From Dictyostelium discoideum (taxonomy: Eukaryota): a DNA stretch of 64,000 nucleotides. Position 1 is the stretch's first letter. Every line of letters starts with the position of its first letter. A program made the translations under genes and the position numbers. The notes beneath the pieces were generated by a model. That model did no database searches. It was not told the origin of the DNA and saw only the letters and a program-made list of their open reading frames with translations. The stretch lies in NCBI GenBank assembly GCA_000004695.1, contig CM000150.2:768001-832000 (forward strand). The letters are read 5' to 3'. This document shows, one piece after another, positions 27,721-55,892 of the stretch.

Positions 27721-29355
27721 TCAATATAAATTAAATTCATATTTCTTTTTAAATATTTTATTAAATATTTTATTTATTAATTCTGATTCAACTATATTTA
27801 ATTTACCAATTAATGGAAGTAAGAATTTAAAACAATTGTTATTTAATTGATAATGTTTATTTGAAATCCAAATTGATTCTAATGAATTTGGTGGTAAAGA
27901 ATTTATTGAAATTGGTGTTTCATCATTTAAAATTATAATATGTTTAATTGAAATTGGTAACCATTTTTTATGAACTGGTTGTTTAAATTCTAAACCTAAT
28001 TCTAAAAGTTCCAATTGTTGTGGTAATGTATTTGAAGTGATTGTTGAATTATAGTTACCAATTCTTAAACATTTTAAATTTGTAAAAACTTTAAAATCTT
28101 TAACTGGTTTAGTATAGGATTTATAATAAAATTCACTTAAATCTAATTTTATTAAATTTTTTAAACAAGTTTGTGAATGGTAATCTAATTTATAATCACT
28201 TTCAATGATATTCACTTTAATTGATTTAATACTTTGAAATTTATTTAAAAATAATTTTGATGATTTTTCAAATATCCAATAAAATAAGAAAATTGGTGTT
28301 GTTGCATTTAAATTTAGTGAACTGAATTGTGATGATAACAATTGTGGTTGTGGTGGTGCTTGAAATTGACCATGAAATGAGTTATAAAAAATTGTTAAAT
28401 TTGTAACTGATGGTGGTATCATGGATATTATATCTATGTTTGAGTCATTTAGTTTTAATAAGTTTGATATTTCTTGATTTGTTGATAAATTACCATTTTT
28501 ATTATAAACTTTTAATTGTAAATGTTTCATTCTCCAATCATTAAAATAAGCAAATGGTTGAGTTCTTAAATTTGTAATTTTAAGTTTTTCAAGTTTATTA
28601 GGTAGAGTTGTACCACTCTTGATTAAACACATATTATAGTCTCTTGGTAATGTTAATTTCTTTAATGATTGTGGTAATTCATTTGAACCAATTTCATGTT
28701 TAAAACTTGAATTTGAAGAAAACTTAATCTGTTCAATTGAATTAGGTAAATTTTTTATTGATTGATTGAATGAATGTCCAAAAATAATTACTTTTAAAAA
28801 TTTTGGTAAAACATTCTCATTTAATTCTTTATTAAAATAAGTTCCAAATTTTAATTTTCTTAATGATATTGGTAAAATGTTAACACCAATTTCTTGATTA
28901 AAAATTGAACTAAATTCTAATATTGTTAAATTTGAAAATATTGATAAACTGTTATTTGTTGACGATACAAGTGGTATATCTGGTTGATTATATACATTAA
29001 AAATTAAATGTGTTACAGGTGGTAAATTTTCACATAAATTGAAACTATTTCTAATATTATTTGGTTGATATAAACTTATTGATTCTATATAGTTTGGTAA
29101 ATTATTTAATTTTTCACTAATTTCTTCTTTTTTAATATCAACAAATTTTATAAATAATGATTTTATAAATTGTTTATTATCTTTTAAGAATTGTTGTTGT
29201 GAAAAGTTGACATCAACTGAAAATGAAAATAAATTAAACATTATTAAATATTTAAAAATTAAATTCTTTAAAACACAGTTTCTCCATATTTTAAAAAATA
29301 ATAAAGAATTAACATCATCATCATTATCACTAACATCAATCTCTATCTCATTCAT
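27721..29355 (-). CDS. FNIP-repeat-containing protein
   Basis: A 544-aa ORF. It has repeated FNQxI/LPxSLxxLxFGxxFN units (e.g. FGHSFNQSIKNLPNSIEQIKFSSNSSFKHEIGSNELPQSLKKLTL). It is a paralogue of 6330..7937 and of the pseudogene at 10920..11965. Confidence 0.75.
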   Translation of the reverse strand: MNEIEIDVSDNDDDVNSLLFFKIWRNCVLKNLIFKYLIMFNLFSFSVDVNFSQQQFLKDNKQFIKSLFIKFVDIKKEEISEKLNNLPNYIESISLYQPNNIRNSFNLCENLPPVTHLIFNVYNQPDIPLVSSTNNSLSIFSNLTILEFSSIFNQEIGVNILPISLRKLKFGTYFNKELNENVLPKFLKVIIFGHSFNQSIKNLPNSIEQIKFSSNSSFKHEIGSNELPQSLKKLTLPRDYNMCLIKSGTTLPNKLEKLKITNLRTQPFAYFNDWRMKHLQLKVYNKNGNLSTNQEISNLLKLNDSNIDIISMIPPSVTNLTIFYNSFHGQFQAPPQPQLLSSQFSSLNLNATTPIFLFYWIFEKSSKLFLNKFQSIKSIKVNIIESDYKLDYHSQTCLKNLIKLDLSEFYYKSYTKPVKDFKVFTNLKCLRIGNYNSTITSNTLPQQLELLELGLEFKQPVHKKWLPISIKHIIILNDETPISINSLPPNSLESIWISNKHYQLNNNCFKFLLPLIGKLNIVESELINKIFNKIFKKKYEFNLY

Positions 29356-29407
29356 TTTGAAATTTTTAAAAAAAAAAAAAACAATGTTTATTTTTAATGA
29401 ATTGATT

Positions 29408-29456
<49 letters not shown>

Positions 29457-29699
29457 CTTTTAGCCATTTTCTTTGATGATACAGATATATTCAAAAAAGG
29501 ACATTTTTTATACCAGTAATAAAAATCATTTTGCAATCTTCAAAGTAGTTTCTTGAGACTTTATATTGATTACCAAGAGTGTACACATACCAGGTTGAAA
29601 TTGGGGAAATAAATCCAAATCATTGTTAATTTTCTTTTCTCAATTTGATATGATTTTAAACAAATCTTTTTAAAAAAAAATAAAAATAAAATAAAAAAA

Positions 29700-29890
29700 T
29701 AAAAAATTAAGAATGACCAATCATCTTAATTTAAAAAAAAAAAATAAAAATAAAATAAAAATAAAATAAAAATAAAATAAAAATAAAATTAAAAATGACC
29801 AATCATCTTTATTTAATAAAAAAAAATAAAAATAAAATAAAAAAATAAAAAATTAAGAATAACCAATCATCTTAATTAAAAAAAAAAAAC
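29700..29890. repeat. Three spaced copies of a ~28-bp motif AATTAAGAATGACCAATCATCTTAATT (core TGACCAATCATCTT) embedded in A-rich (ATAAAA)n tracts, in the divergent intergenic region
   Basis: Cores lie at about 29714-29727, 29796-29809 and 29860-29873, the third with TAACCAATCATCTT. They sit 230-400 bp upstream of the 30097 (+) gene and 350-520 bp upstream of the 29355 (-) gene. They contain a CCAAT pentamer. Confidence 0.5.
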
Positions 29891-30096
29891 AGATATATTC
29901 AGCAGTACACAACTTACTTTTCTTTTATTAATGAAAAAAAATTTTTTTGAAGTTCATAGGATTCAGGATTTTTTTATTTTGAAGTTCGTTGATTTCAAGA
30001 TTTTTTTTTTTTTTATCAAAAAAAATTTTTTTTTTTTTCAAATTTTTTTTTCAAATTCAATATTTTTTATTTTTTATTATTATAATTTATCTTTAA

Positions 30097-31005
30097 ATGG
30101 AACGAATGATAAATTATTTCTCTCCTTCAAAGGGAACAAAAAAACTTCAAAATGCTGTCAACGATCCAAATATAGATCAAGGATTACCATCTCATATTTT
30201 GCTTGTTAAAGTTATTGATCAGGGTAATAATAGAACTGGAAATAAAATAAGAAGAAAATTGTATAGATTTATGAAAGACACAAATAATGTTGGGGGTAGA
30301 ATTTGGTATCCAAGAGATCATGCCGAAACCTCTCAAATATATTGGGGATTCTTTGGACAGGATATTATAACTCAAGCATGGGCAGTAAACTTAATTTTGG
30401 ACTTTGAACGTTCAACGAAAATCTCTATCCCAGGAAATTGGAGATTTACTGTGGTTTTATCTAAACCTGTGGTGGATTCTGATGTAATCGGTAACCTATT
30501 AAACAAATTTAATTTCGAAGAAAACGAATTCGCCAAATTGAAAGAAGATTTTAGTGAGTTGAGCAATGCCTATGAACAACTAAAAAAAGAAGTCAAAGAA
30601 AATGAACAACTAAAAAAACAAGTCATAGAAAATGAACAACTAAAAAAAGAAGTAAAAGAAAATGAACAACCAAAAAAAGAAGTCATAGAAAATGAAAAAC
30701 CAAAAAAAGAAGTCATAGAAAATGAACAACTAAAAAAAGAAGTCATAGAAAATGAACAACCAAAAAAAGAAGTCAAACAAAATGAACAACTAAAAAAAGA
30801 AGTCAAAGAAAATGAACAACCAAAAAAACAAGTCAAAGAAAATGAAAAACCAAAAAAAGAAGTCATAGAAAATGAACAACTAAAAAAAGAAGTCAAACAA
30901 AATGAACAACCAAAAAAACAAGTCAAAGAAAATGAACAACTGAAAAAAGAAGTCAAGGAAAATGAAAAACCCAATAATTTTTCTTTTTCTGTTAAAAAAG
31001 AATAA
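30097..31005 (+). CDS. Hypothetical protein: ~150-aa N-terminal globular region + 16 tandem 10-aa repeats NEQ[L/P]KKEV[K/I]E
   Basis: A 302-aa ORF. The N-terminal part (MERMINYFSPSKGTKKLQNAVNDPNIDQGLPSHILLVKVIDQGNNRTGNKIRRKLYRFMKDTNNVGGRIWYPRDHAETSQIYWGFFGQDIITQAWAVNLILDFERSTKISIPGNWRFTVVLSKPVVDSDVIGNLL) has no recognised family. From about 30574 there is a near-perfect 30-bp DNA tandem repeat (GAAAATGAACAACTAAAAAAAGAAGTCAAA) of ~13 units. The antisense ORF 30570..30974 is an artefact of the repeat. Confidence 0.65.
   Translation: MERMINYFSPSKGTKKLQNAVNDPNIDQGLPSHILLVKVIDQGNNRTGNKIRRKLYRFMKDTNNVGGRIWYPRDHAETSQIYWGFFGQDIITQAWAVNLILDFERSTKISIPGNWRFTVVLSKPVVDSDVIGNLLNKFNFEENEFAKLKEDFSELSNAYEQLKKEVKENEQLKKQVIENEQLKKEVKENEQPKKEVIENEKPKKEVIENEQLKKEVIENEQPKKEVKQNEQLKKEVKENEQPKKQVKENEKPKKEVIENEQLKKEVKQNEQPKKQVKENEQLKKEVKENEKPNNFSFSVKKE
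30574..30970. repeat. 30-bp tandem repeat (~13 units, >90% identical) inside the CDS 30097..31005
   Basis: The unit is gaaaatgaacaa[c/a]taaaaaaa[g/c]aagtca[a/t]agaa. Its 30-bp period keeps the reading frame. Confidence 0.9.
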
Positions 31006-31345: not shown

Positions 31346-32788
<1,443 letters not shown>

Positions 32789-50726: not shown

Positions 50727-50808
50727 GACATCGTAGCGAAGTGGTCTAACGCGTTTGACTTGAAATCAAATCTCCTAGGAGGCGCAGGTTCGAACCCTGC
50801 CGATGTCG
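50727..50808 (+). tRNA. tRNA-Ser (anticodon UGA), 82 nt
   Basis: Cloverleaf fold: acceptor GACATCG/CGATGTC, D-arm GCG-AAGTGGTCTAA-CGC, anticodon stem TTTGA/TCAAA with loop CTTGAAA (anticodon TGA), a long variable arm TCTCCTAGGAGGC, T-arm GCAGG-TTCGAAC-CCTGC and discriminator G. A T6 pol III terminator follows (50811-50817). Confidence 0.9.
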
Positions 50809-50850: not shown

Positions 50851-50920
50851 TTAATTAAATAAAATTAACATGGAAAAAATCCATCAAAACCCCGCTATAA
50901 AAAAAATTAAAAATAAACAA

Positions 50921-50992
50921 GTTTCGATAGCTCAGTGGAAGAGCAAGCGACTGCAAATCGTTAGGTCGCCAGTTCAATCCTGGTTCGGAACT
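50921..50992 (+). tRNA. tRNA-Cys (anticodon GCA), 72 nt
   Basis: Cloverleaf fold: acceptor GTTTCGA/TCGGAAC (one G-U), D-arm GCTC-AGTGGAA-GAGC, anticodon stem AGCGA/TCGTT with loop CTGCAAA (anticodon GCA), variable AGGTC, T-arm GCCAG-TTCAATC-CTGGT and discriminator U73 (a Cys identity element). A T-run follows. Confidence 0.9.
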
Positions 50993-50999
50993 TTCATTT

Positions 51000-54331: not shown

Positions 54332-54413
54332 TCGACATCGGCAGGGTTCGAACCTGCGCCTCCTAGGAGATTTGATTTCAAGTCAAACGCGTTAGACCAC
54401 TTCGCTACGATGT
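54332..54413 (-). tRNA. tRNA-Ser (anticodon UGA), second copy, inverted relative to 50727..50808
   Basis: The 82-nt mature sequence is the exact reverse complement of the first copy. About 45 bp of 5' flank are also similar (..AAATTTTATATT.AAA.....TTTCATC.AAGACATCG). Confidence 0.9.
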
Positions 54414-55892
54414 CTTCGATGAAAAATGAATTTCAATATAAAATTTAGTTGGCTAATCATTTTTCGATGGTGAATCAGAATTTCTTTTCGATAAAACATT
54501 AGGTTTGAAAATTTTTTTGTGATAATTTTGAAAAATAACTTACATATAAACTTTATTTGTTTTTTATTAAACTTATGGCAACATATTTTCTTACAATTAT
54601 TCTTTTATTTTTATAGTATATTTATAATTTATTAAAATATATACATTAAAATAAAATTAATATTATTTAATATACAAAAATATAAATAATTTATTTATTA
54701 TTAATTAAATAACATTTGATGATAAAATCTAAAATCAAATTTTTATTGCAAATTAATTTAATTATTTATTGAAATTTTTAAGAATAATTTATGTAAAAAT
54801 ATATAAATTGATCCTTCATTAATGATATAGTTTGATTTATTAATTTTAATGAATTAATAAAAACATTAATAATAATAATTGTTGATGAAATTAATAAGTA
54901 ATCTTATTTTTTATGTAAGAAATTTGAAAACAATTTAAAAAAATTAAAAAAAAAAAATGAAGAAACTATAATTTAACTAGTAAAATATATAAAATAAAAA
55001 TAATTATTTTCATTAAAATTTTTATTTTATTTCATACTTAATATTACAATAAATAGTATTTCAATAAATAATTGTAAATTTGAAATAATGAAATTTAAAA
55101 ATAAAAATAATATTTATGATTGGTTTAAAAGATATATTGGATTTAATAAAAAAAATAAAAAAAATAAAAAAAATAAAAAAAAATAAAAAAACAAAAAAAT
55201 TAAAAGTCGAATTATGAAGTAATATATATAACTCTCCAATGAGATATTTAAAATAATTGTAAATTTGTTTTTACAATAAAAATTTGATTAAAATGTAAAA
55301 ATTTACAAATGTTAAAATAAAACTATTATTTAAAAATTATTTAATTCCAAAAAAAAAAAAAAACTAAATTTTTAACCATTTTAAAAATTTTAAGGATAAT
55401 ATGTTCAACCCCATTTATTGTGAATGTCAATAACAATAAATAATAAACCATTTTTGGGATAATTGTAAATACTATCTCAGATTTAAAAAAGATAAGATGA
55501 TCTATGAAGAATATTAGTAGCATTGATGATACGATAAATTTGTAATTTTAGTAATTAGTATTTTTTTTTAAATATATTAAATTGTAGTTTGTGCAAATGA
55601 TGGTTCAAATTTGTGAGAAGAACATATTAAAAAATTTCAAATTTAAATGAAAAGGGTGTTAAAAGTAATTACACAATTATAAAGAATATAAATATATATA
55701 TATATATGTATAAAAATAATACCACCACATTATAAGCATATAAATTCAATCATTATAATTTTTTTATTTATTTTTTAATTATTTTTTTTGTTTATTTCAA
55801 AATATACGTACATTTCCTAACAATAAATTTATTGCCATTTATATTAAAATTTTAAAAAATTATTCATTACCACAAGGAAAAAAAAAAAAAAT

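Follow-up and report, generated by a model that had tools for sequence, protein, structure and literature searches.

The hypothetical protein DDB_G0268344 of Dictyostelium discoideum is best explained as a taxonomically restricted protein made of two modules, a small globular orphan domain and a neutral polyampholyte spacer tail that came from the amplification of a minisatellite; this is the reading that we favour, with a probability of roughly 0.55. Its gene is a single-exon coding sequence of 302 codons plus stop, at positions 30097..31005 on the forward strand of the 64-kb stretch of DNA analysed here (the window, in whose coordinates all positions are given). The original prediction, made from the letters of the window, had delimited this open reading frame (ORF) exactly, and its translation is identical to XP_647289.1, EAL73625.1 and UniProt Q55G95, the 'hypothetical protein DDB_G0268344' of D. 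discoideum AX4, whose record an exact look-up placed on a 4.92-Mb contig. In a second D. discoideum assembly, GCA_054883475.1, the start is set at Met4 (30106), which renders a product of 299 amino acids (KAM9943870.1) that is otherwise identical. An exact-sequence look-up of contigs encoding the protein found one other genome assembly only and no transcript assemblies.

The window has a G+C content of 22%, and the N-terminal part of the gene shows a coding-like composition (G+C 33%, GC3 0.26). Moreover, the non-repeat part of the ORF comprises 158 codons without a stop, and a chance ORF of that length is unlikely because in DNA of 22% G+C we would expect roughly 9% of random codons to be stops. 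AATAAA sequences overlap the stop codon and also come after it. DDB_G0268344 is a genuine gene, already known as an uncharacterised database entry, and no paralogue of either of its modules was found within the 64-kb window. As we read its sequence, the protein carries no hydrophobic N-terminus or segment, and it would be soluble and cytosolic or nuclear.

The most conspicuous feature of the gene is a tandem array in its 3' half. Tandem Repeats Finder detected one array at 30572-30970 (period 30, 13.3 copies, 91% matches, no indels, score 644), which is the top-scoring tandem array of the window and the sole coding repeat there with a period above 3. Read in register with the codons, 13 complete 30-bp units (30571..30960, forward strand) encode the decapeptide [Y/N]E[Q/K][L/P]KK[E/Q]V[K/I][E/Q] and are followed by a truncated 14th unit of 12 nt encoding NEKP (30961..30972, forward strand), after which a unique C-terminal tail, NNFSFSVKKE, and the stop codon complete the coding sequence (30973..31005, forward strand). 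The array therefore holds 13.4 copies, that is, 13 full units and a 12-nt stub, and not the 16 repeats announced in the heading of the original prediction, the body of which spoke, correctly, of about 13 DNA units of more than 90% identity (the mean is 91%). Units 1-13 each agree with the consensus AATGAACAACTAAAAAAAGAAGTCAAAGAA (NEQLKKEVKE) in 27-30 of their 30 positions. The borders of the array are sharp, because the 30-mers flanking it on both sides drop to the background level of matching: two 30-mers upstream agree with the consensus at 13-15 of 30 positions, the background having a mean of 9.7 and a maximum of 19. To call the peptide units near-identical copies of NEQLKKEVKE, as was done at first, does justice to their high identity, but this consensus masks a systematic alternation of Leu and Pro: Pro stands at the fourth position in units 4, 5, 7, 9, 10, 12 and 14, which amounts to six of the 13 full units plus the stub (seven of 14 in total).

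Nine positions vary among the units, six of them non-synonymously (N/Y, in unit 1 alone, Q/K, L/P, E/Q, K/I and E/Q) and three as silent singletons, two of which lie in unit 13, the last full unit, and one in unit 3. Each amino-acid variant corresponds to a change of one base (CTA/CCA, AAA/ATA, GAA/CAA or CAA/AAA), five of the six non-synonymous variants are common to at least two units, and two pairs of units are identical. At the L/P and K/I sites all four combinations are present, so that the units must have recombined or mutated recurrently. Identity between units is 0.91 at lag 1 and highest, 0.94, at lag 5; units do not resemble each other more when they are neighbours than when they lie far apart, which, together with the mosaic distribution of the variants, indicates that variants were shuffled among units. 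A higher-order period of five units (150 bp) is not claimed here, since its permutation p of 0.02, before correction for the eight lags, is not significant afterwards. Codon usage points to the origin of the units. All Leu codons of the array are CTA or CTG, and 12 of its 13 Val codons are GTC; CTA makes up 5.5% of the Leu codons, and GTC 6.5% of the Val codons, in the other long ORFs of the window. Because these rare codons recur from unit to unit, the units descend by copying from a single DNA unit and are not convergent peptides. A single transition turns CTA into CCA, the codon preferred for Pro (79%), and this accounts for the alternation of Leu and Pro.

The array thus arose when one 30-bp unit was amplified and its copies later exchanged sequence, and the expansion or concerted evolution suggested at the outset is supported by the 91% identity, the two identical pairs, the copied rare codons and the mosaic variants. 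Its units stand head to tail, are constant in length and highly identical and share rare codons, and its borders are sharp, all of which are properties of a coding minisatellite. The genome of D. discoideum is exceptionally rich in coding repeats (PMC3460934, PMC7466956), and the repeat proteins described there share with DDB_G0268344 an in-frame array with A-rich codons and high unit identity in an AT-rich genome prone to slippage. The documented cases are, however, mostly triplets coding for homopolymers (poly-N, poly-Q), whereas the unit is here one of 30 bp and its product a decapeptide of mixed charge.

The second assembly, GCA_054883475.1, shows a 99.6% match to the window over 6.9 kb, and its array is identical, with 13.4 units. 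The two differ only in the length of homopolymer runs, in two other short indels and in one substitution beside a poly-T run. This comparison tells nothing of natural variation in repeat number, and the assembly probably represents the same lineage as the window and not an independent natural strain.

As regards its physical nature, the segment encoded by the array (residues 159-292) contains 37 Lys, 35 Glu, 16 Gln, 13 Asn, 13 Val, 7 Leu, 7 Pro and 5 Ile. With a fraction of charged residues of 0.54, a net charge per residue of +0.015 (net +2 over 134 residues) and a kappa of 0.07, the tail is a well-mixed, almost neutral, strongly charged polyampholyte with frequent Pro. Single alpha-helix (E/R/K) domains contain no Pro, and about 75% or more of their residues are charged; the PEVK region of titin is far richer in Pro. 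The array resembles both in being a charged, extended segment rich in Glu and Lys, and 69% of its residues are Pro, Glu, Val or Lys; it differs from them in having only 5% Pro and 54% charged residues.

It had been proposed originally that this C-terminal half is helical and forms a coiled coil, which would dimerise or oligomerise the protein. For the array as a whole this did not hold. Pro replaces Leu in seven of the 11 units from unit 4 onwards, the 10-residue period places hydrophobic residues at a 4+6 and not a 3+4 spacing, and the hydrophobic power of the array at period 3.5 is 0.18, as against 0.86 at 10/3 and 1.24 at 10/2, which are trivial harmonics of the repeat. Since Pro is found in seven of the 14 units and heptad periodicity is not sustained, the array is not a long coiled coil, and a coiled-coil rod over its whole length is not plausible. 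The proposal fares better at the junction between the two halves of the protein. An acidic linker (residues 141-158, net -4; 30517..30570, forward strand), delimited by the analysis of charge and periodicity, contains the beginning of a short heptad-like stretch with clean 3-4-3-4 spacing, F145-L148-F152-L155-Y159-L162-V166, that runs into the first repeat unit, and it is in residues 141-190 only that a signal at period 3.5 appears (0.89). In a full-length, single-sequence AlphaFold2 model (pLDDT 44.6) the best-scored element is a single helix, residues 142-194 (pLDDT 64-80), that continues through the three Leu-type units with which the array opens, and several favourable i/i+4 Glu-Lys pairs can be read in the sequence of such units. 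Beyond the third unit, most of the array is modelled with a pLDDT below 50. According to the model, then, the junction may plausibly form a short helix or coiled coil, at moderate confidence, but this would extend over about six heptads at best, and we judge it quite unlikely that the C-terminal half as such is an oligomerising coiled coil.

A different function for the tail is suggested by its motifs. The array contains KKEV ten times, KKQV three times and KKEVI four times, and the C-terminal region has 14 evenly spaced KK doublets, 13 of them inside the array; the periodicity of KKEV is unusually regular. KKEVI is a literal motif of the microtubule-binding region of MAP1B, described as 'highly basic', which, with its KKEE/KKEVI motifs, suffices for binding to microtubules (PMC2115962). 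Like that region, the array is a long stretch of low complexity in which KKE[EVI] is repeated and KKEVI occurs exactly; on the other hand, the MAP1B motifs are irregularly spaced in a highly basic context, whereas the array is neutral (37 Lys vs 35 Glu) and strictly periodic, and there is no homology between the two. A similar comparison can be made with the KKE/D tails of Nop56, Nop58 and Cbf5, which are terminal, charged disordered regions with positive net charge, a kappa of 0.1-0.4 and a charged fraction above 0.35, and which bind RNA and direct proteins to nucleoli (PMC11528048). Like them, the tail of DDB_G0268344 is a terminal charged polyampholyte in which lysine doublets precede an acidic residue, and its charged fraction (0.54) lies within their range; its net charge of +0.015 per residue and its kappa of 0.07 do not, the KKE/D tails being positive and blockier. 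Moreover, the KKE/D tails sit on conserved proteins of ribosome biogenesis, whereas this one sits on an orphan domain with no match in Pfam or the PDB.

It could be the case that the KKEV array is a lysine-doublet module for binding polyanions, which would tether the N-terminal domain to microtubules or nascent RNA. The C-terminal position of the tail, its high proportion of charged residues (54%) and the basic character of the N-terminal 140 residues (pI 9.9, net +7) are in line with this. Nevertheless, both the MAP1B and the KKE/D regions are net basic, the likeness amounts to a motif of 4-5 residues in a low-complexity context and not to homology, and none of the searches tied these proteins together, so that we regard such a function as unlikely.

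The other module is the N-terminal domain, with a conserved core at residues 31-138 (30187..30510, forward strand). That the first 150 or so residues belong to no recognisable family, as had been stated from the start, was confirmed by searches of Pfam and of the PDB. Pfam holds no family for residues 1-158, nor for the single homologue discussed below; the full protein renders one Pfam match only, of 12.7 bits, under the cut-off of 20.9; and no sequence or profile match to the domain was found in the PDB. When 1.84 billion representative proteins were searched exhaustively with phmmer, four proteins were returned, namely the protein's own cluster, a single credible distant relative (P0003, E 7.6e-7) and two matches (P0004 and P0005) that were rejected, since each consists of 5-6 short stretches and was judged to be a spurious summation over internal repeats. 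Word-indexed protein searches with the N-terminal domain, with the alignment of the two sequences and with the repeat half were empty, a weak negative given that they missed the protein's own cluster as well, and pattern scans for relatives of the domain in viral, prokaryotic and metagenome DNA collections found none.

P0003 is a fragment of 301 amino acids encoded by a GC-rich JGI contig of 929 bp (sample 3300052456, Ga0533534_047570), with an AATAAA after the stop; the contig is probably eukaryotic and transcript-like. Residues 31-138 of DDB_G0268344 align at 34% identity (pairwise E 8e-15) with the final ~110 residues of P0003, and the two sequences have in common the blocks LL[VI]KV[IL]D.G....GN, W.P...E.S..YW and G.W.FT.VL.KP. 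In this protein the domain is C-terminal and comes after an acidic low-complexity region with short repeats of the AIEDN/AIDDDF type, so that charged low-complexity sequence adjoins the domain in both proteins. The N-terminal domain of DDB_G0268344 is thus conserved in one distant organism and otherwise unclassified. A foreign origin of the domain was considered in view of its GC-rich homologue and its GC3 of 0.26, and was found to be unsupported, as two other ORFs of the window have a similar GC3.

An AlphaFold2 model of the domain, based on the two-sequence alignment (pLDDT 58, pTM 0.52), predicts the order beta(33-42)-alpha(46-62)-beta-beta(79-86)-alpha(90-107)-beta(114-121)-alpha(128-140). 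Foldseek searches with it against the PDB and BFVD gave nothing at E <= 0.001, and because the weaker matches of this low-confidence model are scattered over many unrelated superfamilies, they suggest a fold class only. That class would be the ferredoxin-like alpha+beta sandwich (topology beta-alpha-beta-beta-alpha-beta, with an antiparallel sheet of four strands), as found in the ribosomal proteins uS10 and bS6, ACT/PII-like domains and dimeric alpha-beta barrels, none of which is related to the domain in sequence. The domain is an unclassified small alpha/beta domain and possibly of ferredoxin-like type. A more far-reaching proposal is that residues ~31-138 found an undescribed eukaryotic domain family, with one member in D. 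discoideum and the other in a GC-rich environmental eukaryote, that is fused to charged low-complexity regions, the KKEV array acting as a MAP1B-like or KKE/D-like binder of a polyanion (microtubules or nascent RNA) that is tuned by the number of its repeats; we consider this combination very unlikely.

Upstream, DDB_G0268344 shares a divergent intergenic region of 741 bp (29356..30096) with an FNIP-repeat gene encoding 544 amino acids on the reverse strand (27721..29355; Pfam PF05725, E 4.3e-29, six stretches), which is also an annotated gene in GCA_054883475.1. Both this arrangement and the triplicated motif that had been noticed in the region proved correct. Three copies of an A-rich unit of 64-82 bp, each with [G/A]ACCAATCATCTT, lie at 29671..29889 (forward strand), with the motif at 29716, 29798 and 29862. 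The CCAAT-box consensus of NF-Y is RRCCAATSR, and the sequences carried by the three units, GACCAATCA, GACCAATCA and AACCAATCA, all fit it. They account for three of the 13 matches to this consensus in the window, but as copies of one duplicated unit they are not independent occurrences. Nearer to the gene, 92-155 bp upstream of its ATG, a 32-bp unit, TTTTGAAGTTCATAGGATTCAGGATTTTT, is duplicated in tandem (29942..30005, forward strand), and this duplication may be a core-promoter or regulatory element. Its first copy contains the palindrome TGAAGTTCA.

The same intergenic region has two further features. A run of 53 T (29409-29461) next to the start of the FNIP gene is 15 nt shorter in GCA_054883475.1, a difference that could reflect either real instability or a difference in assembly or sequencing. 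In addition, an exact 13-bp direct repeat, ACAGATATATTCA, at 29481-29493 and 29889-29901 flanks a block of 395 bp that opens with a unique segment (29494-29665), relatively GC-rich at 26% G+C, and continues with the three CCAAT-type units and an A12 run before the second ACAGATATATTCA. A direct 13-mer repeat with at least three G/C arose in 0.35% of shuffles of the intergenic region. An element that was retroposed or inserted, flanked by a target-site duplication, would show a similar layout. The window contains the block only once.

On the other side of DDB_G0268344, a convergent gene at 31346-32191 (reverse strand), annotated in GCA_054883475.1 as encoding 408 amino acids and containing introns, includes at 31538-31817 an (ATT)n stretch of about 93 triplets, which codes on the minus strand for a very long run of Asn. 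An Rfam scan of the 27-33 kb interval was empty, and there is no tRNA near DDB_G0268344 either. Elsewhere in the window there are three tRNA genes, at 50727-50808, 50920-50993 and 54333-54414, two for Ser(tga) on opposite strands and one for Cys(gca); it is at tRNA genes that the TRE retrotransposons of Dictyostelium usually land.

It may also be asked whether DDB_G0268344 is a decaying or functionless ORF whose array is a neutral minisatellite that happens to be in frame. Orthologues are absent among the annotated proteins of dictyostelids, neither DDB_G0268344 nor Q55G95 appears in the literature searched, and the predominance of non-synonymous differences among the units (six sites vs three silent singletons) argues against a strong constraint on the peptide. 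However, all 302 codons are intact where so many random codons would be stops, the 13 units show no frameshifts or indels, the N-terminal domain has been kept in a distant organism with matching predicted secondary-structure elements, and the gene is preceded by a promoter-like region with repeated CCAAT-type motifs. Such a loss of function seems very improbable to us in view of these features.

According to the favoured reading, a small globular domain with a neutral spacer tail, the first module would be a small basic alpha/beta domain of about 115 residues, from an undescribed family and probably a ferredoxin-like sandwich, and the second a charged C-terminal tail of about 140 residues with 13.4 decapeptide units. 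The tail would have grown by amplification of the 30-bp minisatellite, via slippage or unequal exchange, and exchange between units would have continued after amplification, so that the array would not owe its origin to selection for a particular peptide. The Leu-type units may form short helices, broken about every 10-20 residues by Asn or Pro, and the composition of the tail suggests an extended and highly soluble spacer with 14 regularly spaced Lys-Lys doublets rather than a rod. The globular domain would then supply specific binding, while the tail could add reach, solubility and weak, multivalent electrostatic contacts.

The array of DDB_G0268344 is an ordinary kind of feature in the repeat-rich genome of D. 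discoideum, and it matters little past annotation. The analysis corrects the repeat count and the coiled-coil reading, and it reveals a conserved, unclassified domain with one distant environmental relative. The array also illustrates cleanly how, in a coding 30-bp minisatellite, the sharing of rare codons and the mosaic of variants record the amplification. Should binding of the KKEV array to microtubules or RNA be established, the array would offer a compact and easily tested model of how the number of repeats tunes electrostatic binding.
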